Source of the DNA: a phage
Strand: one strand, 5' to 3'
DNA length: 64,000 bases
Sequence record: PZ445536.1
Below, one piece after another: positions 19,557 through 29,737 of the stretch (within the stretch, counting starts at the first letter, position 1; each line of letters opens with the position of its first letter). A model generated the notes under the pieces. The model saw nothing but the letters and a program-made list of their open reading frames with translations. It did no database searches and was not told the origin of the DNA. A program made the position numbers and the translations under genes.

Positions 19557-22500
19557 ATGGCCGAGATTAAAAGAAAGTTCAGAGCAGAAGATGGTCTGGA
19601 CGCAGGTGGCGATAAAATAATCAACGTAGCTTTAGCTGATCGTACCGTAGGAACTGACGGTGTTAACGTTGATTACTTAATTCAAGAAAACACAGTTCAA
19701 CAATACGATCCAACTCGTGGATATTTAAAAGATTTTGTAATCATTTATGATAACCGCTTTTGGGCTGCTATAAATGATATTCCAAAACCGGCAGGAGCTT
19801 TTAATAGCGGACGCTGGAGAGCATTACGTACCGATGCTAACTGGATTACAGTCTCATCTGGTTCATATCAATTAAAATCCGGTGAAGCTATTTCGGTTAA
19901 CACCGCAGCTGGTAATGATATTACATTTACTTTACCATCTTCTCCAATTGATGGTGATACTATCGTTCTCCAAGATATTGGAGGAAAACCTGGAGTTAAC
20001 CAAGTTTTAATTGTAGCTCCGGTGCAAAGTATTGTAAACTTCAGAGGTCAACAAGTACGTTCAGTACTAATGACTCATCCAAAGTCACAGCTAGTTTTAA
20101 TTTTTAGTAATCGTCTGTGGCAAATGTATGTTGCTGATTATAGTAGAGAAGCTGTAGTTATAACACCAGCAAGTCTCTATCAGGCGCAATCTAATGATTT
20201 TATCGTACGTAGATTTACTTCTGCTGCACCAATTAATGTTAAACTTCCAAGATTTGCTAATCATGGCGATATTATTAATTTCGTTGATTTAGATAAACTG
20301 AATCCACTTTATCATACAATTGTTACTACATACGATGAAACGACTTCAGTACAAGAAGTTGGAACTCATTCCATTGAAGGCCGTACATCGATTGACGGTT
20401 TCTTGATGTTTGATGATAATGAGAAATTGTGGAGATTGTTTGACGGTGACAGTAAAGCGCGTTTACGCATTATAACGACTAATTCTAATATTCGTCCAAA
20501 TGAAGAAGTCATGGTATTTGGTGCGAATAACGGAACAACTCAAACAATTGAGCTTCAGCTTCCAACTAATATTTCTGTTGGTGATACTGTTAAAATTTCC
20601 ATGAATTACATGAGAAAAGGACAAACAGTTAAAATCAAAGCTGCCGGTGAAGATAAAATTGCTTCTTCAGTTCAATTGCTGCAATTCCCAAAACGTTCAG
20701 AATATCCGCCTGAAGCTGAATGGGTAACTGTTCAAGAATTAGTTTTTAACGGTGAAACTAATTATGTTCCAGTTTTACAACTTGCTTATATAGAAGATTC
20801 TGATGGAAAATACTGGGTTGTACAACAAAACGTTCCAACCGTAGAAAGAGTAGACTCTTTGAATGATTCTACTAGAGCAAGATTAGGCGTAATTGCTTTA
20901 GCTACACAAGCTCAAGCTAATGTCGATTTAGAAAATTCTCCACAAAAAGAATTAGCAATTACTCCAGAAACATTAGCTAACCGTACTGCTACAGAAACTC
21001 GCAGAGGTATTGCAAGAATAGCAACTACTGCTCAAGTGAATCAGAACACCACATTCTCTTTTGCAGATGACCTTATCATTACTCCTAAAAAGCTGAATGA
21101 AAGAACTGCTACAGAAACTCGCAGAGGTGTTGCTGAAATTGCTACGCAGCAAGAAACTAATGCAGGAACCGATGATACTACAATCATCACTCCTAAAAAG
21201 CTTCAAGCTCGTCAAGGTTCTGAATCATTATCTGGTATTGTAACTTTTGTATCTACCACAGGCGCTACTCCAGCTTCTAGTCGTGAATTAAATGGTACAA
21301 ACGTTTATAATAAAAACACTAATAATTTAGTTGTTTCACCTAAAGCTTTGGATCAGTATAAAGCTACTCCAACGCAGCAAGGTGCAGTAATTTTAGCAGT
21401 TGAAAGTGAAGTAATTGCTGGACAAAGTCAGGAAGGATGGGCAAATGCTGTTGTAACACCAGAAACGTTACATAAAAAGACATCAACTGATGGAAGAATT
21501 GGTTTAATTGAAATTGCTACTCAAAGCGAAGTTAATACAGGAACTGATTATACTCGTGCAGTCACTCCTAAAACTTTAAATGACCGTAGAGCAACTGAAA
21601 GTTTAAGTGGTATAGCTGAAATTGCTACACAAGTTGAATTCGACGCAGGCGTCGACGATACTCGTATCTCTACACCATTAAAAATTAAAACTAGATTTAA
21701 TAGTACTGATCGTACTTCTGTTGTTGCTCTATCTGGATTAGTTGAATCAGGAACTCTCTGGGACCATTATACCCTTAATATTCTTGAAGCAAATGAGACA
21801 CAGCGTGGTACACTTCGTGTAGCTACACAGGTCGAAGCTGCTGCAGGAACATTAGATAATGTTTTAATAACTCCTAAAAAGCTTTTAGGTACTAAATCTA
21901 CCGAATCACAGGAAGGTGTTATTAAAGTTGCAACCCAGTCTGAAACTGTTACTGGAACGTCAGCAAATACTGCTGTATCTCCAAAAAATTTAAAATGGAT
22001 TGTGCAGAGTGAACCTACTTGGGCAGCTACTACTGCGATAAGAGGTTTTGTTAAAACTTCATCTGGTTCAATTACATTCGTTGGTAATGATACAGTTGGT
22101 TCTACACAGAGCTTAGAGCTATACGAGAAAAATAGCTATGCAGTATCACCATATGAATTAAACCGTGTATTAGCAAATTATTTGCCGTTAAAAGCAAAAG
22201 CTGCTGATACAAATTTATTAGATGGTCTAGATTCATCTCAGTTCATTCGTAGGGATATTGCACAGACGGTTAATGGTTCACTAACCTTAACCCAACAAAC
22301 GAATCTGAGTGCCCCTCTTGTATCATCTAGTACTGCTACGTTTGGTGGATCAGTTTCGGCAAATAGTACATTAACTATTTCTAATACTGGAACGGCAACT
22401 CGTCTGATATTTGAGAAAGGACCTCAAACTGGAACGAACCCAGCGCAGACGATGACTATCAGAGTTTGGGGAAATCAGTTTGGTGGTGGATCAGATACAA

Positions 22501-23426
22501 CACGTTCTACTGTATTTGAAGTTGGTGATGAAACATCTAATCACTTTTATTCTCAACGTAATAAAGCTGGTAATATTACGTTTAGCATTAATGGTACTGT
22601 GATGCCAATAAATGTTAACGCTTCCGGTTCATTGAATGCGAATGGCGTTGCAACATTTGGTAGTTCAGTTACTGCTAATGGCGAATTCATCAGCAAGTCT
22701 GCAAATGCTTTTAGAGCAATTAGTGGTGATTACGGATTCTTTATTCGCAATGATGCTGCTACCACATATTTTATGCTCACTGCATCCGGTGATCAGACTG
22801 GCGGATTTAATGGATTACGTCCTTTAGCTATTAATAATGCATCTGGCCAAGTAACGATTGGTGAAAGCTTAATCATTGCCAAAGGTGCTACTATAAATTC
22901 AGATGGTTTGACTGTTAACTCGAGAATTCGTTCTCAGGGTACTAAAACATCTGATTTATATACCCGTGCGCCAACATCTGATACTGTAGGATTCTGGTCA
23001 ATCGATATTAACGATTCAGCCACTTATAACCAGTTCCCGGGTTATTTTAAAATGGTTGAAAAAACTAATGAAGTGACTGGACTTCCATACTTAGAACGTG
23101 GCGAAGAAGTTAAATCTCCTGGTACACTGACACAGTTTGGTAACACACTTGATTCGCTTTACCAAGATTGGATTACTTATCCAACGACACCAGAAGCGCG
23201 TACCACTCGCTGGACACGTACATGGCAGAAAACCAAAAACTCTTGGTCAAGTTTTGTTCAGGTATTTGACGGAGGTAACCCTCCTCAACCATCTGATATC
23301 GGTGCTTTACCATCTGATAATGCTACAATGGGGAATCTTACTATTCGTGATTTCTTACGAATTGGTAATGTTCGCATTATTCCTGACCCAGTGAATAAAA
23401 CGGTTAAATTTGAATGGGTTGAATAA
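19557..23426 (+). CDS. 34: gp34 long tail fiber proximal subunit
   Basis: 1289 aa (T4 gp34 length); internal ~40-aa repeats (TETRRG..IAT..TPKKL); late promoter. Confidence 0.93.
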   Translation: MAEIKRKFRAEDGLDAGGDKIINVALADRTVGTDGVNVDYLIQENTVQQYDPTRGYLKDFVIIYDNRFWAAINDIPKPAGAFNSGRWRALRTDANWITVSSGSYQLKSGEAISVNTAAGNDITFTLPSSPIDGDTIVLQDIGGKPGVNQVLIVAPVQSIVNFRGQQVRSVLMTHPKSQLVLIFSNRLWQMYVADYSREAVVITPASLYQAQSNDFIVRRFTSAAPINVKLPRFANHGDIINFVDLDKLNPLYHTIVTTYDETTSVQEVGTHSIEGRTSIDGFLMFDDNEKLWRLFDGDSKARLRIITTNSNIRPNEEVMVFGANNGTTQTIELQLPTNISVGDTVKISMNYMRKGQTVKIKAAGEDKIASSVQLLQFPKRSEYPPEAEWVTVQELVFNGETNYVPVLQLAYIEDSDGKYWVVQQNVPTVERVDSLNDSTRARLGVIALATQAQANVDLENSPQKELAITPETLANRTATETRRGIARIATTAQVNQNTTFSFADDLIITPKKLNERTATETRRGVAEIATQQETNAGTDDTTIITPKKLQARQGSESLSGIVTFVSTTGATPASSRELNGTNVYNKNTNNLVVSPKALDQYKATPTQQGAVILAVESEVIAGQSQEGWANAVVTPETLHKKTSTDGRIGLIEIATQSEVNTGTDYTRAVTPKTLNDRRATESLSGIAEIATQVEFDAGVDDTRISTPLKIKTRFNSTDRTSVVALSGLVESGTLWDHYTLNILEANETQRGTLRVATQVEAAAGTLDNVLITPKKLLGTKSTESQEGVIKVATQSETVTGTSANTAVSPKNLKWIVQSEPTWAATTAIRGFVKTSSGSITFVGNDTVGSTQSLELYEKNSYAVSPYELNRVLANYLPLKAKAADTNLLDGLDSSQFIRRDIAQTVNGSLTLTQQTNLSAPLVSSSTATFGGSVSANSTLTISNTGTATRLIFEKGPQTGTNPAQTMTIRVWGNQFGGGSDTTRSTVFEVGDETSNHFYSQRNKAGNITFSINGTVMPINVNASGSLNANGVATFGSSVTANGEFISKSANAFRAISGDYGFFIRNDAATTYFMLTASGDQTGGFNGLRPLAINNASGQVTIGESLIIAKGATINSDGLTVNSRIRSQGTKTSDLYTRAPTSDTVGFWSIDINDSATYNQFPGYFKMVEKTNEVTGLPYLERGEEVKSPGTLTQFGNTLDSLYQDWITYPTTPEARTTRWTRTWQKTKNSWSSFVQVFDGGNPPQPSDIGALPSDNATMGNLTIRDFLRIGNVRIIPDPVNKTVKFEWVE

Positions 23427-23434
23427 GAGGTATT

Positions 23435-24550
23435 ATGGAAAAATTTATGGCAGAGTTTGGACAAGGATATGTCCAAACGCCATTTTTATCGGAAAGCAAT
23501 TCAGTAAGATACAAAATAAGTATAGCGGGTTCTTGCCCGCTTTCTACTGCAGGGCCATACGTTAAATTTCAAGATAATCCTGTAGGAAGTCAAACATTTA
23601 GCGCAGGTCTTCATTTAAGAGTTTTTGACCCTTCCACAGGAGCATTAGTTGATAGTAAGTCATATGCTTTTTCGACTTCAAATGATACTACATCAGCTGC
23701 TTTTGTTAGTTTCATGAATTCTTTGACGAATAATCGAATTGTTGCTATATTAACTAGTGGAAAGGTTAATTTTCCTCCTGAAGTAGTATCTTGGTTAAGA
23801 ACCGCCGGAACGTCTGCTTTTCCATCTGATTCTATATTGTCAAGATTCGACGTATCATATGCTGCTTTTTATACTTCTTCTAAAAGAGCTATCGCATTAG
23901 AGCATGTTAAATTAAGTAATAGAAAAAGCACAGATGATTATCAAACTATTTTAGATGTTGTATTTGACAGTTTAGAAGACGTCGGAGCTACCGGGTTTCC
24001 AAGAAGAACGTATGAAAGCGTTGAGCAATTCATGTCAGCGGTTGGTGGAACTAATAACGAAATTGCGCGTCTACCAACTTCAGCTACTATAAGTAAATTA
24101 TCTGATTATAATTTAATTCCTGGCGATGTTCTTTATCTTAAAGCCCAGTTATATGCTGATGCCGATTTACTTGCTCTTGGAACTACGAATATATCCATTC
24201 GATTTTATAATGCATCGAACGGATATATTTCCTCGACACAAGCTGAGTTTACTGGACGGGCTGGGTCTTGGGAATTAAAAGAAGACTATGTAGTTGTTCC
24301 AGAAAACGCTGTAGGATTTACGATATACGCACAAAGAACTGCACAAGCTGGCCAAGGTGGCATGAGGAATTTAAGCTTTTCTGAGGTATCAAGAAATGGC
24401 GGTATTTCAAAACCTGCTGAATTTGGCGTCAATGGTATTCGTGTTAATTATATCTGTGAATCTGCTTCACCTCCGGATATAATGGTACTTCCTACGCAAG
24501 CATCGTCTAAAACTGGTAAAGTGTTTGGGCAAGAATTTAGAGAAGTTTAA
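23435..24550 (+). CDS. 35: gp35 long tail fiber hinge connector
   Basis: 371 aa, position between 34 and 36. Confidence 0.9.
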   Translation: MEKFMAEFGQGYVQTPFLSESNSVRYKISIAGSCPLSTAGPYVKFQDNPVGSQTFSAGLHLRVFDPSTGALVDSKSYAFSTSNDTTSAAFVSFMNSLTNNRIVAILTSGKVNFPPEVVSWLRTAGTSAFPSDSILSRFDVSYAAFYTSSKRAIALEHVKLSNRKSTDDYQTILDVVFDSLEDVGATGFPRRTYESVEQFMSAVGGTNNEIARLPTSATISKLSDYNLIPGDVLYLKAQLYADADLLALGTTNISIRFYNASNGYISSTQAEFTGRAGSWELKEDYVVVPENAVGFTIYAQRTAQAGQGGMRNLSFSEVSRNGGISKPAEFGVNGIRVNYICESASPPDIMVLPTQASSKTGKVFGQEFREV

Positions 24551-24612: not shown

Positions 24613-25278
24613 ATGGCTGATTTAAAAGTAGGTTCAACAACTGGAGGCTCTGTCATTTGGCATCAAGGAAATTTTCCATTGAATCCAGCCGGTGACGATG
24701 TACTCTATAAATCATTTAAAATATATTCAGAATATAACAAACCACAAGCTGCAGATAACGATTTCGTTTCTAAAGCTAACGGTGGTACTTATGCATCAAA
24801 GGTAACATTTAATGCTGGTGTTCAAGTACCATATGCTATAAACAATACAAACCAAAGTGGTATTTATCCTGGTAATGGAGATGCAGCTACTTTTGTTACA
24901 GCAAATATTGATATTGTTTCATGGTATGGTATTGGTTTTAAATCATCACAGGGTTCAGCAGCCAGAACTGTAGTAATCAATACACGTAATGGTGATATTA
25001 GTACAAAAGGCGTTGTATCCGCTGCAGGTCAAGTAAGAAGTGATGCAGCTGCTCCTATAGCAGCGAATGACCTTACTAGAAAGGACTATGTTGATGGAGC
25101 AATAAATACTGTTACAGCAAATGCAAACTCTAGAGTGTTACGATCTGGTGACACTATGACGGGAAACTTAACCGCACCAAACTTTTTCTCGCAGAATCCT
25201 GCATCTCAACCTTCACATGTTCCACGATTTGACCAAATCGTAATTAAGGATTCTGTTCAAGATTTCGGCTATTATTAA
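24613..25278 (+). CDS. 36: gp36 long tail fiber distal connector
   Basis: 221 aa (T4 gp36 length). Confidence 0.9.
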
Positions 25279-25286
25279 GAGGACTT

Positions 25287-28200
25287 ATGGCTACTTTAAA
25301 ACAAATACAATTTAAAAGAAGCAAAACCGCAGGTGCACGTCCTGCTGCTTCAGTATTAGCCGAAGGTGAATTGGCTATAAACTTAAAAGATAGAACAATT
25401 TTTACTAAAGATGATTCAGGAAATATCATTGATTTAAGCATTTCCGCTGGCGGTAATATCAGTGGAAATGTAACTATTGATGGAACTTTACGCGTCAATG
25501 GACCAATAAACAATTTTGGAAATTTTTCCACAAGTGGCCAGATTACCGCTGGTAGTAGTATTTCAGCTCAAGTTTTTAGAGCATTGCAAGGTTCGTTTTA
25601 TACAAGAGCATCAAATGATGTCTCAAATGCCCATTTATGGTTTGAAAATGCCGATGGCACTGAACGAGGTGTTATATATGCTCGTCCTCAAACTACAACT
25701 GACGGTGAAATACGCCTTAGGGTTAGACAAGGAACAGGAAGCACCATTAATAGCGAATTCTATTTCCGTTCTATAAACGGCGGTGAATTTCAAGCCAATC
25801 GTATTTTAGCATCAGATTCGTTAGTAACAAAACGCATTGCAGCTGATACAGTTATTCACGGTGGCAAAGCCTTTGGTGTATATGATACGGATTCATTAGT
25901 TAACTACGTATACCCAGGCACCGGTGAAACTAACGGAGTAAACTATCTTCGTAAAGTTCGCGCTAAATCAGGCGGTACCATATGGCATGAGCTTTGTACT
26001 GCTCAATCAGGCCAAGCTGATGAAATGTCTTGGTGGACCGGTTCTACTCCTATTTCAAAACAATTTGGTATTCGTCATGACGGTCGGATGATTGTCCGCA
26101 ATAGTCTTGCATTAGGCACTATGACTACTGATTTTCCATCGAGCGATTATGGTAATGGTGGCGCATTAGGATTCGGTGCTTATTTGGCTCTAGGTGATAA
26201 CGGAACTGGTTTACGCTATCAAAAAACCGGTGTTTATGATTTAGTTGGTTCCGGATTGTCTGTTGCATCTATTACTCCAGATAGTTTCCGTAGTACTCGT
26301 AAAGCATTATTTGGACGTTCAGAAGACCAAGGCACCACATGGATTATGCCTGGAACGAACGCTGCATTTTTATCAGTTCAAACACAGGCTGATGAAAACA
26401 CTGCTGGAGACGGCCAGACGCATATTGGCTATAACTCAGGCGGAAAAATGAACCACTATTTCCGTGGTAAAGGCAAAACTAATATTAATACTCAGGAAGG
26501 TATGGAAGTTAATCCGGGTATTTTGAAATTGGTAACTGGCTCTAATAATGTAATGTTTTATGCTGATGGCGGTATTACATCTGTTAAGCAGCTTTCAATA
26601 TATAATGGCATATATTTAGCAGCTAATAATTCTACTGCTGGGCTAACATTCGCTCCAACTACTACAGTTGATGGTACTAAGCAAATTTTGTGGGAAGGCG
26701 GTACTCGTGCTGGGCAGAATAAAAGCTATGTAACTGTTAAAGCGTGGGGTAATTCATTTAACGCATCTGGCGATCGTTCCCGTGAAACAGTTTTTGAGGT
26801 AGGTGATGGGCAAGGTTACCATTTTTATTCTCAACGTGTAGCTCCTGCGCCTGGTTCGACTGTCGGGCCTATTCAACTCCGAGTTGATGGTGGTTTATTA
26901 ACTTCAGGTAGTATTGTTGCTTCTGGTTCTATTACAACCGAATCTTCTTTGAGTGTTAATAATGGCATGTCAGTAAACGGACAAGCTAAATTCGGTGGAA
27001 CTGCTGATGCATTAAGAATTTGGAATGCCGAATACGGTGCTATTTTCCGTCGCTCAGAAACAGCATTACATATTATCCCGACTCCCAAAGATGCCGGTGA
27101 AAGTGGTGGAATAAGTAATCTCCGCCCACTTAGTATTAGTCTTAATAATGGTATGGTACAAATGCGCCATTCTGTTACGTTAGGCGATGATGGCGCTGGC
27201 GGTAATATGATTACTGTGGACAACGATACCAAACTTGTTGTTGTTACTAGTAATAGTCGCATTTCTCCTAATTACCGTATGCAGGTAGGACAAGCAGCTT
27301 ATATTGATGCTGAATGTACTGACACAGTTCGCCCGGCTGGTGCAGGGTCTTTTGCTTCACAAAATAATGAAAACGTTCGTGCTCCATTCTATATGAATAT
27401 TAATCGCACAGATACAAGTACTTACGTTCCTATTTTGAAACAGCGATATGTCCAAGGAAACAGTTGTTATTCTCTGGGAACTCTAATTAACGGCGGTAAC
27501 TTCAGAGTTCATTATCATGAAGGCGGCGATGGCGGTTCGACTGGCGCTATTATAAAGGATTTAGGTTGGGAATTTACCAAAAATGGTGATTTTATATCTC
27601 CTAAGCGTGTTTCTGCTGGGGGTTCAGTTTATTTAGGTACAGACGGCAATATTACAGGTGGTTCTGGCAATTTTGCTAATTTAAACAGTACAATTGAATC
27701 ACTTAAAACCGATATTGTATCGAGTTACCCAATCGGTGCTCCTATTCCATGGCCAACGGATACTCCTCCTGACGGTTACGCTATTATGGAAGGCCAGACT
27801 TTTGATAAGTCTGCATACCCAAAATTGGCTATGGCTTACCCATCTGGCGTAATTCCAGATATGCGCGGGCAAACTATTAAAGGTAAACCAAGTGGTCGAG
27901 CTGTATTAAGCGCAGAAGCCGATGGTGTTAAGGCTCATAGCCATAGTGCATCGGCTTCAAGTACTGACTTGGGTACTAAAACTACGTCGAGTTTTGATTA
28001 TGGTACTAAGACGACAAGTAGCTTTGACTATGGCACTAAGACTAGCAATACCACAGGTAACCACTCTCATACTGTAAGCGGTACTACGAGTTCTGCTGGT
28101 GCACACCAACATGCGCGCTCAGGTCCTCAGTTACAAGCCGGCATACCCAATAACATATTCTATGACGGATATAATAGTGTAGGTGCAAACGCCAACGCTA

Positions 28201-28481
28201 AAATCACCGGATCTGTGAGCGGTGCTACTGCAGGGTCGAATATAGCCAAAACTTCTTCAGACGGTGCTCATACCCATACTTGGTCTGGTACTACAAGCAC
28301 TACAGGTAACCATGCTCACACAGTAGGTATTGGTGCTCATACCCATACTGTAGGTATCGGTGCTCATACCCACACGGTAGCAATTGGCTCGCATGGTCAT
28401 ACTATCACTGTAAATAGTACAGGTAATACAGAAAACACGGTTAAAAACATCGCTTTTAACTATATCGTTCGTTTAGCATAA
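25287..28481 (+). CDS. 37: gp37 long tail fiber distal subunit (receptor-binding tip with His-box)
   Basis: 1064 aa; C-terminal HxH repeats ([36 protein letters not shown]) typical of the T4-type gp37 needle; shares VFEVGD..HFYSQR box with gp34. Confidence 0.9.
27972..28031 (+). repeat. tandem 30-nt coding repeat ([10 protein letters not shown] x2, partial third) in gp37
   Basis: Direct repeat read from sequence with synonymous differences. Confidence 0.75.
28323..28403 (+). repeat. tandem 27-nt coding repeat x3 (VGIGAHTHT His-box units) in gp37
   Basis: gtaggtattggtgctcatacccatact repeated with 2-3 substitutions. Confidence 0.8.
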
Positions 28482-28486
28482 GGAGA

Positions 28487-28500
28487 GGGGCTTCGGCCCC
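28487..28500 (+). other. stem-loop GGGGC-UUCG-GCCCC between genes 37 and 38
   Basis: 5-bp G/C stem with UUCG loop; weak U-tail, likely a processing/stability hairpin rather than a strong terminator. Confidence 0.45.
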
Positions 28501-28508
28501 TTCTGAAT

Positions 28509-29060
28509 ATGAAAATATATCATTATTATTTTGACACTAAAGAATTTTACAAAGAAGAAAATTACAAACCGGTTAAAGGACTCGGTCTTCCTGCTCATTC
28601 AACAATTAAAAAACCTTTAGAACCTAAAGAAGGATACGCAGTTGTATTTGATGAACGTACTCAAGATTGGATTTATGAAGAAGACCATCGCGGCAAACGA
28701 GCATGGACTTTTAATAAAGAAGAAATTTTTATAAGTGACATTGGAAGCCCGGTTGGTATAACCTTTGATGAGCCCGGCGAATTTGATATATGGACTGATG
28801 ACGGTTGGAAAGAAGACGAAACATATAAACGCGTTTTAATTCGCAATAGAAAAATTGAAGAATTATACAAAGAATTCCAAGTTTTAAATAATATGATTGA
28901 AGCTTCTGTCGCGAATAAAAAGGAAAAATTCTATTATAAAAACCTTAAGCGGTTCTTTGCTCTTTTAGAAAAGCATGAGCATTTAGGTGGTGAATTCCCT
29001 TCATGGCCTGAAAAAGAACGGAAACCTTGGTATAAGCGTTTATTCAAGCATTACGTATAA
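28509..29060 (+). CDS. 38: gp38 tail fiber assembly chaperone (T4-type)
   Basis: 183 aa (T4 gp38 length), immediately downstream of 37. Confidence 0.88.
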   Translation: MKIYHYYFDTKEFYKEENYKPVKGLGLPAHSTIKKPLEPKEGYAVVFDERTQDWIYEEDHRGKRAWTFNKEEIFISDIGSPVGITFDEPGEFDIWTDDGWKEDETYKRVLIRNRKIEELYKEFQVLNNMIEASVANKKEKFYYKNLKRFFALLEKHEHLGGEFPSWPEKERKPWYKRLFKHYV

Positions 29061-29063
29061 ATA
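29056..29063 (+). promoter_or_regulatory. late promoter TATAAATA for holin t (overlaps gene 38 stop)
   Basis: Exact consensus 18 nt upstream of the t ATG, followed by AAGGAGG SD. Confidence 0.65.
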
Positions 29064-29080
29064 TCTTAAAAGGAGGGTCT

Positions 29081-29737
29081 ATGGCAGCACCTAGAATATC
29101 ATTTTCGCCCTCTGATATTCTATTTGGTGTTCTAGATCGCTTGTTCAAAGATAACGCTACTGGGAAAGTTCTTGCTTCCCGGGTAGCTGTCGTAATTCTT
29201 TTATTTATGATGGCGATTGTTTGGTATAGGGGAGATAGTTTCTTTGAGTACTATAAGCAATCAAAGTATGAAACATACAGTGAAATTATTGAAAAGGAAA
29301 GAAATGCACGCTTTGAATCTGTCGCCCTGGAACAACTCCAGATAGTTCATATATCATCTGAGGCAGACTTTAGTGCGGTGTATTCTTTCCGCCCTAAAAA
29401 CTTAAACTATTTTGTTGATATTATAGCATACGAAGGAAGATTACCTTCAACAATAACTGAAAAATCACTTGGAGGATATCCTGTTGATAAAACTATGGAT
29501 GAATATATAGTTCATTTAAATGGACGTCATTATTATTCTGACTCAAAATTTGCTTTTTTACCAACTAAAAAGCCTACTCCCGAAATAAACTACATGTACA
29601 GTTGTCCATATTTTAATTTGGATAATATCTATGCTGGAACGATAACCATGTACTGGTATAGAAATGATCATATAAGTAATGACCACCTTGAATCAATATG
29701 CGCTCAGGCGGCCAGAATATTAGGAAGGGCTAAATAA
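29081..29737 (+). CDS. t: holin T (lysis timing, lysis-inhibition sensor)
   Basis: 218 aa (T4 T length); single N-terminal TMD (VAVVILLFMMAIVWY) and large periplasmic domain. Confidence 0.9.
   Translation: MAAPRISFSPSDILFGVLDRLFKDNATGKVLASRVAVVILLFMMAIVWYRGDSFFEYYKQSKYETYSEIIEKERNARFESVALEQLQIVHISSEADFSAVYSFRPKNLNYFVDIIAYEGRLPSTITEKSLGGYPVDKTMDEYIVHLNGRHYYSDSKFAFLPTKKPTPEINYMYSCPYFNLDNIYAGTITMYWYRNDHISNDHLESICAQAARILGRAK

Follow-up and report, generated by a model that had tools for sequence, protein, structure and literature searches.

Does the enlarged fiber tip encoded by gene 37 of this phage (sequence record PZ445536.1) result from a recent, slippage-prone expansion of coding repeats, as a sequence-only reading of the DNA had proposed, or are the repeats ordinary parts of a T4-type fiber? 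The window, that is, the whole 64,000-nucleotide stretch analyzed, carries gene 37 at positions 25287 to 28481 of the plus strand, on which all of the features described below also lie. The gene encodes the distal subunit of the long tail fiber with a built-in adhesin tip (1,064 residues), as indicated by the ORF list, the translation, and the order of the neighboring genes (gp34-35-36-37-38-t, the same as in T4). Along its full length, the gene shares 99.6% nucleotide identity with its counterpart in Shigella phage ESh17, and 744 residues of the product are identical in T4 gp37. The identity and length given in the sequence-only reading, including the excess over T4 gp37, which has 1,026 residues, are thus confirmed. 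Downstream, gene 38 (positions 28509 to 29060) encodes a 183-residue tail fiber chaperone, assigned by direct comparison with T4 gp38 (182 of 183 residues identical) and from the chaperone annotation in the T4 and BASEL records; a Pfam search of gp38 found no family. This gp38 is of the T4 type, as opposed to the T2-type gp38 adhesin.

The C-terminal part of gp37 (residues 787 to 1064) matches residues 2 to 242 of the T4 gp37 tip chain in PDB entry 2XGF (phmmer, E = 1.9e-96), the structure of Bartual et al. 2010 (PNAS). The similarity spans the collar, the stem, and the C terminus, and the two proteins have in common an architecture of collar, HxH needle, and tip. A phage tail collar domain (PF07484, positions 27735 to 27878, residues 817 to 864), which aligns to 2XGF and is part of knob D10, precedes the needle and scores 44 bits against a curated cutoff of 24 (E = 2.1e-11). 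The Pfam Phage_fiber repeat PF03335 reached 17.3 bits at residues 921 to 934, under its cutoff of 20 bits, and is not claimed. An AlphaFold2 model of residues 787 to 1064, computed from a 50-sequence alignment as a monomer of what is an obligate intertwined trimer, left the needle almost without secondary structure (mean pLDDT of 52, pTM of 0.19).

Mapping of the T4 stem boundaries (residues 882 to 931 and 960 to 1009; PMC6957217) through the alignment with T4 gp37 delimits two needle strands, with a variable tip between them. The outbound, ascending strand (positions 27933 to 28112, residues 883 to 942, 60 residues) has HxH motifs at residues 884, 926, and 940, and the return, descending strand (positions 28251 to 28427, residues 989 to 1047, 59 residues) has them at residues 995, 1009, 1018, 1027, and 1036, which makes eight in the needle. 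Each strand contains its own repeat family, and the span from 27972 to 28403 singled out in the sequence-only reading does frame the repeat region. On the outbound strand, Tandem Repeats Finder reported a period of 30 nucleotides at 27965 to 28044 (2.7 copies, 74% matches, score of 83). In codon register, three 10-residue units beginning with GTK occupy positions 27972 to 28061: the first two (27972 to 28001 and 28002 to 28031) encode the same 10 residues, the tandem duplication noted earlier, while the third (28032 to 28061) is degenerate. On the return strand, the same program found a period of 27 nucleotides at 28317 to 28380 (2.4 copies, 86% matches, score of 100). Repeat search, codon register, and comparison with T4 define four His-box units there (28293 to 28400) with three 9-residue spacings; among them are the three repeats of the sequence-only reading, TVGIGAHTH twice (28320 to 28346 and 28347 to 28373) and TVAIGSHGH (28374 to 28400). 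An adjacent identical 10-residue pair and an adjacent identical 9-residue pair, both conserved in homologs, do not arise by chance. The first two GTK units differ at 8 of 30 nucleotides (73% identity), in six codons, and the two TVGIGAHTH units differ at 3 of 27 (89% identity); every one of these differences is synonymous. Such divergence, combined with strict amino acid conservation, shows that the protein units themselves are under selection.

The view that metal is coordinated through the HxH units, as in other tips of the T4 type, holds, given the match to 2XGF and the seven iron sites of the T4 gp37 tip (PMC6957217). In a needle of this type (domain D11), each of the three chains extends to the tip and then returns, and iron is coordinated on the fiber axis by HxH motifs that all three contribute. 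The T4 contacts G921-F970 and H929-G964 (PMC6957217), together with the stem boundaries, give an i + j of approximately 1891 to 1893, which places the 10-residue GTK unit of T4 (895 to 904) opposite A988-S997. The His-free, 10-residue GTK units would therefore face the 9-residue His boxes on the return strand, a physical pairing that we infer from register extrapolation and covariation. The same two lines of evidence suggest that the eight HxH motifs probably provide an eighth iron site per trimer, and the predicted stem exceeds that of T4 by one rung, or roughly 3 nm. A rung of 10 residues facing 9 would imply a bulge.

The T4 C terminus, when aligned, shows one fewer of each repeat rather than an equal number: the 10-residue unit that is duplicated here and VGIGAHTHT each occur once. 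In total, T4 has two GTK units, the second being GTKGTNSTGG, against three here, two 9-residue His-box spacings against three, seven needle HxH motifs against eight, and a tip of 28 residues against 46, 18 residues shorter and unrelated in sequence. These differences are not scattered. The two proteins are nearly identical over their last 47 residues and in the region of residues 787 to 905, and blastn against T4 matched only 27300 to 28010 (79%) and 28338 to 29100 (96.9%). The blastn result and a codon-wise difference profile delimit a cassette at positions 28011 to 28337 that lacks blastn similarity to T4 and contains all 37 extra residues, namely, one GTK unit, the longer tip, and one His-box unit. 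The cassette is not an insertion into an otherwise identical sequence; it is 327 nucleotides of full divergence, and its edges, near residue 906 and near residues 1018 to 1024, fall inside repeat units. One contiguous divergent cassette is consistent with recombination rather than two independent slippage events, and the 99% identity of gp38 to its T4 counterpart likewise accords with a single exchanged segment. The difference from T4 is thus best explained by a cassette swap, in which a GTK unit, the tip, and a His-box unit would have been exchanged together and the conserved repeats would have provided the end points. Since T4 represents a minority short form, the change may have run in either direction. 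T4 is not a typical reference for stem length, and differences in gp37 tip length are to be read as whole cassettes, not as independent repeat expansions.

The long form is widespread. ESh17 is 100% identical over 27900 to 28481, and the HxH spacing of gp37 (42-14-55-14-9-9-9) recurs in ESh17, in the BASEL phages AdolfPortmann and FelixPlatter, and in SHSML-52-1 and TuIa. Of 13 phages sampled across four genera, 11 have three 9-residue spacings; the number of units is the same in Tequatrovirus, Mosigvirus, and Nonagvirus phages, and Gaprivervirus SP18 has an equal number, its outbound segment being 41 residues long and diverged. In phage records, at least 80% of the cassette is covered in 107 and at least 80% of the 582-nucleotide tip region in 116; among the matches listed of the latter, the repeats align ungapped and length differs only where the tip differs. 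TuIa gp37 (GenBank X55190; Montag, Hashemolhosseini & Henning 1990) has a module layout identical to that seen here, although its tip sequence differs (73% nucleotide identity over the cassette). Like this phage, TuIa and the ESh17/"teqdroes" group (AdolfPortmann, FelixPlatter) have the 10-residue GTK unit twice, VGIGAHTHT twice, the same C-terminal 29 residues, and a T4-type gp38 chaperone downstream. Comparing orthologous with paralogous unit identity gave no clear signal as to the age of the duplications, the units being too short (27 to 30 nucleotides), and age was judged instead from the synonymous-only divergence and the spread across genera. This divergence and the shared layout in ESh17, AdolfPortmann, FelixPlatter, TuIa, and the 116 records indicate that gp37 carries an old, fixed allele and not a fresh slippage product. 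It is the common "long-stem" allele of TuIa, ESh17, and the BASEL OmpC phages, T4 having the shorter variant. The allele is already known, its layout having been sequenced in TuIa in 1990, and the repeats represent normal architecture; its significance for gp37 of this phage is therefore small.

What the comparison adds is a relation between the two repeat families. For n nine-residue return spacings, the outbound His-free segment measures 12 + 10n residues in 190 of 192 unique homologous C termini (n = 1 to 4 and 6), a set of phylogenetically nonindependent sequences in which independent copy number changes are few, perhaps 5 to 10. In gp37 of this phage n is 3, in T4 it is 2, and n = 5 was met once, by hand, in P0124. 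Extra 14-residue modules occur on both strands together. Different stem layouts coexist in five of the 20 tip clusters, and the strands are matched in every layout of four of them; the fifth, to which this gp37 belongs, includes an unmatched member, L002 (IMG/VR UViG_3300030021_000020). This metagenomic relative, the sole copy number exception among close relatives, has three GTK units and only two 9-residue spacings, exactly one 27-nucleotide unit being missing. If L002 is real and viable, the matching is not absolute; this metagenome assembly suggests that unit loss can occur, though rarely. No explicit statement of the 12 + 10n rule came up in the searchable literature, which does not include Bartual et al. 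2010 or Montag et al. 1990.

We consider it very probable that both repeat families belong to the standard structural modules from which the needle of T4-type gp37 is built and that, within the same explanation, the GTK and His-box repeats are structural partners, inferred to pair, whose copy numbers must match. The proposal that replication slippage or unequal crossing-over recently expanded both repeats, creating an active hypervariable hotspot that alters tip length or host range, draws on the presence of tandem in-frame repeats with one fewer of each in T4, on an 18-nucleotide exact direct repeat at 28263 and 28332, and on the loss of a single unit in L002. Laboratory duplications of a small adhesin segment in T4 gene 37 also reportedly expand host range, a result credited to Tetart et al. 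1996 (J Mol Biol 258:726). Those mutants concern the same region of gp37, but their duplications were new, whereas the copies in this gp37 are old, differ by synonymous changes, and are a fixed feature of many phages. Near-identical DNA copies and a number that varies among close relatives would both be expected of a recent slippage variant; instead, the copies have diverged silently, their number is constant across TuIa and three genera, repeat length does not vary among the matches listed of the 116 records, and the difference from T4 is one fully divergent cassette. Recent slippage is largely refuted and now seems improbable, and with it the hotspot of the sequence-only reading. That the extra copies are an assembly artifact of a short tandem repeat is more improbable still, to the point of being negligible: nothing specific speaks for it apart from the generic risk of tandem repeats and the metagenomic origin of the unmatched L002, and diverged units of 27 to 30 nucleotides are spanned by reads. 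Moreover, the layout is identical in independent isolates and assemblies (ESh17, AdolfPortmann, FelixPlatter) and in TuIa, which was sequenced by the Sanger method in 1990.

A more serious alternative, to which we give somewhat less than even chances, is that the importance of the GTK units and GxHxH boxes lies mainly in their DNA, as short patches of homology through which recombination swaps tips between fibers, with protein pairing being secondary. Both ends of the cassette, as defined against T4, lie within repeat units, one tip cluster can sit on stems of differing length (the 5 of 20 clusters above), and the tip family is spread over T-even phages, Nonagvirus, and prophage fibers. Strict amino acid conservation despite synonymous divergence argues in the other direction, and the 12 + 10n relation is a constraint of protein geometry and hence not imposed by DNA homology alone. 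Such a role would complement structural pairing of the two families, which it does not exclude. Extending the pairing further, we tentatively propose, as an idea that we regard as rather less likely than not to hold in full, that the needle is a quantized, length-tunable ladder in which each rung consists of a 10-residue GTK unit and a 9-residue GxHxH unit, with a second type of rung adding 14 residues per strand. Such a rule would explain the near absence of unmatched recombinants and, if undescribed, could serve as a design rule for fiber tips of set length and iron content. Unit matching itself may help tip grafting for host range engineering, unequal strands being likely to misfold.

The sequence-only reading had also suggested that repeat expansion may alter receptor specificity. 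Specificity resides more plausibly in the tip (head) subdomain between the repeats (positions 28113 to 28250, residues 943 to 988, 46 residues), presumed to form the receptor-binding surface. Neither phmmer against 2XGF, nor the alignment, nor blastn detected similarity between this tip and that of T4. With FelixPlatter (Bas40), 48 of 52 residues are identical, with four differences. FelixPlatter targets OmpC (PMC8594841), and the receptor of TuIa is OmpF (PMC9659904). A receptor call should rest on the tip, which here is FelixPlatter-like; by likeness to this one tested phage, the receptor is probably OmpC.

The C-terminal module of approximately 215 residues extends beyond T-even phages. The T4/lambda receptor-binding protein family, which includes Ur-lambda Stf and the side tail fibers of enterobacterial prophages (PMC9659904), has the same module, in which a collar is combined with GTK units, His boxes, and a variable tip, and hundreds of prophage proteins match it at 57 to 88% identity. 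The tip family of this gp37 itself occurs not only in T-even phages but also in Nonagvirus and in many fibers of enterobacterial prophages. The prophage fibers belong to other phage types, have unrelated N-terminal shafts, and employ chaperones of the Tfa type instead of the gp38 type (PMC9659904); the fibers of the T4/lambda family also follow the unit-matching rule.

The gp37 ORF of the window (25287..28481, plus strand; 1064 aa by ORF listing and translation) carries its repeats at the 3' end. Its neighbors are arranged in the T4 order (reference NC_000866): gp34 (19557-23426, 1289 aa), gp35 (23435-24550) and gp36 (24613-25278) upstream, gp38 (28509-29060, 183 aa) and holin t (29081-29737) downstream. 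Tandem Repeats Finder detected two arrays, at 27965-28044 (period 30, 2.7 copies, 74% matches) and 28317-28380 (period 27, 2.4 copies, 86% matches). In codon register, two His-free 10-residue "GTK units" of identical peptide (27972-28001 and 28002-28031) and a degenerate third (28032-28061) lie on the outbound strand of the needle stem, while the return strand has 9-residue HxH "His-box units," namely, TVGIGAHTH twice (28320-28346 and 28347-28373) and TVAIGSHGH (28374-28400). The tandem repeats announced for this C terminus in the sequence-only reading are thus correct in coordinates and content.

The C-terminal 278 residues of gp37 match the solved T4 gp37 tip (PDB ID 2XGF, E=1.9e-96). In the full-length alignment, T4 gp37 is shorter (1026 aa), with one intact GTK unit followed by GTKGTNSTGG instead of two intact units and a degenerate one, and with a single VGIGAHTHT, rather than two TVGIGAHTH copies, ahead of the last box (VAIGSHGHT in T4). 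T4 has seven needle HxH motifs (at 883, 915, 929, 966, 980, 989, and 998), whereas the gp37 of the window has eight (at 884, 926, 940, 995, 1009, 1018, 1027, and 1036); the motifs flanking the tip are 37 residues apart in T4 and 55 in the window, and the outbound and return strands measure 60 and 59 aa, compared with 50 and 50 in T4. The alignment with T4, which gave fewer units there, agrees with the earlier description of a longer gp37 with extra repeat units, and the assignment of the HxH repeats as metal-coordinating units of a T4-type tip is upheld.

In T4, domain D11 is a stem built from residues 882-931 and 960-1009, with the tip at 932-959 and seven iron atoms arranged along the needle (PMC6957217). 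The stem boundaries and two contacts (G921 with F970; G964 with H929 of the neighboring subunit) (PMC6957217) provide four pairs for which i+j is about 1891-1893, defining an antiparallel register along the whole stem. By extrapolation, the T4 GTK unit 895-904 would lie opposite A988-S997, i.e., one His-box unit, and the His-free outbound segment 886-914 would face the return-strand boxes at 980, 989, and 998. Counting one GTK unit facing one His-box unit as a rung, the gp37 of the window would have one extra rung (an extended strand of about 9-10 residues, or some 3 nm), with an eighth axial metal site predicted per trimer. A monomer structure prediction of the tip was uninterpretable (mean pLDDT, 52; pTM, 0.19).

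The register prediction was tested against natural variation in homologous C-termini, drawn from a search of 5.8 billion proteins (120 homologues), 80 IMG/VR loci, phage records, and 147 further representatives from an exhaustive HMMER search. We parsed 192 unique C-termini and, with n standing for the count of terminal 9-residue HxH spacings, compared the first HxH spacing with 12+10n (tolerance, 1 residue). The rule held in 190 of them, with n=1 in 1 sequence, n=2 in 76, n=3 in 105, n=4 in 7, and n=6 in 1; an n=5 case, P0124, was read by hand (62, then 9 five times). The 14-residue His modules adjoining the tip are likewise equal in number (0, 1, or 2) on both strands, the gp37 of the window having n=3 plus one 14/14 module. 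When tips were grouped at 50% identity, 5 of the 20 clusters contained more than one stem layout, and in 4 of these 5, all layouts have matched strands.

The window's own tip cluster includes the one unmatched case, the IMG/VR relative L002 (IMGVR_UViG_3300030021_000020, locus 7-2310), which has three GTK units and is short of exactly one 27-nt His-box unit, the gap corresponding to window 28338-28364. Besides its T-even-like gp37, whose tip is of the TuIa type, the contig carries gp38-like and holin-like ORFs. The missing unit may truly have been deleted by slippage, in which case the variant is perhaps defective, or it may have been collapsed during assembly. The other exception, P0239, keeps the expected count of GTK units and has lost one outbound His box; L002 is the sole true exception among the 192 unique sequences. 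The literature searched, which did not extend to the primary structural paper, contained no statement of this quantitative unit-matching rule, the single addition of this analysis. The E. coli proteins P0030, P0035, P0039, P0055, P0056, and P0064 also end in the needle/tip module. Their source names are either "terminase large subunit family protein" or "tail tape measure protein," and Pfam domains of those kinds are found in them; they seem to be prophage genes that are fused or wrongly called, or else misannotated proteins.

The long stem is common. Shigella phage ESh17 shares 99.6% nucleotide identity over the whole of gene 37 and 100% over the 582-nt tip region. Among 13 phage records parsed for HxH spacing, 11 have three 9-residue His-box spacings, 10 of them with a first spacing of 42 residues; they comprise Tequatrovirus (ESh17, AdolfPortmann, FelixPlatter, SHBML-50-1, slur14, AV122, and ECO07P2), Mosigvirus (GADS24, AV116, and SHSML-52-1), and Nonagvirus (JenK1) members. 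SP18 (Gaprivervirus) has a first spacing of 41, then 9,9,9, with diverged outbound units, and the short form (32, then 9,9) occurs only in T4 and Salmonella phage GRNsp7 among the sampled phage records. With the 582-nt tip region as query, 116 records of the phage collection matched over 80% or more of its length in one place; among the matches listed, the aligned lengths were 580-582 nt, apart from those with a different tip (561 and 585 nt). A central cassette (28011-28337) is present in 107 phage records. Among these is the TuIa entry X55190, a partial gene 37 sequence that accompanied the 1990 paper by Montag et al. and has the layout of the window (intact GTK unit twice; HxH spacing, 42-14-55-14-9-9-9). 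T4 is the minority short form, and since the layout is shared with this deposit and many phage records, the long-stem architecture has been in databases for decades. The feature, read earlier as an expansion in this phage, is a known and widespread allele within a family that has been studied in depth (PMC9659904; 2XGF).

The two intact GTK units encode the same peptide and differ at 8 of 30 nt, in six codons, all synonymously, which indicates an old duplication under purifying selection and not recent slippage. The two TVGIGAHTH copies differ at 3 of 27 nt, again synonymously, and in other phages, identity between two GTK units within one genome ranges from 0.53 to 0.90. With blastn, similarity to T4 was confined to 27300-28010 (79%) and 28338-29100 (96.9%); the cassette between (327 nt, about aa 906-1020) had no detectable similarity to its 216-nt counterpart in T4 and contains all 37 extra residues (10 + 18 + 9). 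Codon-wise difference counts place its left boundary inside the GTK units and its right boundary inside the His-box units (about aa 1018-1024). The simplest history is that the cassette was exchanged in one step, with both end points inside conserved motifs. The synonymous divergence and the single divergent cassette argue against a slippage-prone hotspot. The cassette fits the region (907-996) to which, according to a citation in PMC9659904, Montag et al. assigned the receptor specificity of T4 gp37. The mosaic boundary at 28338 is sharp, the T4-like sequence running from the last His-box units through gp38 (182 of 183 residues identical to T4 gp38). The longest exact repeat of the tip region is an 18-nt direct repeat, GGTGCTCATACCCATACT, at 28263-28280 and 28332-28349, 69 nt apart within the return strand; recombination across its copies would delete 23 codons, from one strand only.

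In the alignment with T4 gp37, the tip (aa 943-988) is unrelated to that of T4, so that it lacks counterparts of the T4 residues to which LPS and OmpC binding has been mapped. It matches the FelixPlatter tip at all but 4 of 52 positions; FelixPlatter is listed as OmpC targeting in the BASEL study (PMC8594841), and because of this near-identity, OmpC is most likely the receptor. TuIa combines the same stem with another tip and reportedly uses OmpF (PMC9659904), which suggests that stem length is not what determines specificity. The sequence-only reading thus stands where it concerns unit numbers unlike those of T4 and metal binding by the HxH motifs, and gives way on expansion, hotspot, and altered specificity.

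In the gp37-gp38 gap (28480-28511), AAGGAG (28480-28485), a Shine-Dalgarno-like sequence, lies between the gp37 stop codon (28479-28481) and the gp38 ATG (28509). Its distance to that ATG is 24 nt, unless the two are drawn together by the hairpin 3' of it (GGGGC-UUCG-GCCCC, 28487-28500). The surrounding 46 nt have a folding energy of -15.8 kcal/mol (z=-2.3). T4 has the same arrangement, with a stem one C shorter; in T4, gene 38 is known for this split ribosome-binding site. In the shaft, an 11-residue deletion relative to T4 near aa 532 and an 11-residue insertion at aa 625-635 cancel in length, both within a poorly conserved stretch (window, about 26880-27200; aa about 532-636), and aa 451-660 resemble part of gp34 (PDB IDs 4UXE/5NXF, E about 1e-15). 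The mechanically listed minus-strand ORFs at 26873-27262 (129 aa) and 25244-25531 (95 aa), inside or overlapping gp37 and gp36, are most likely spurious.
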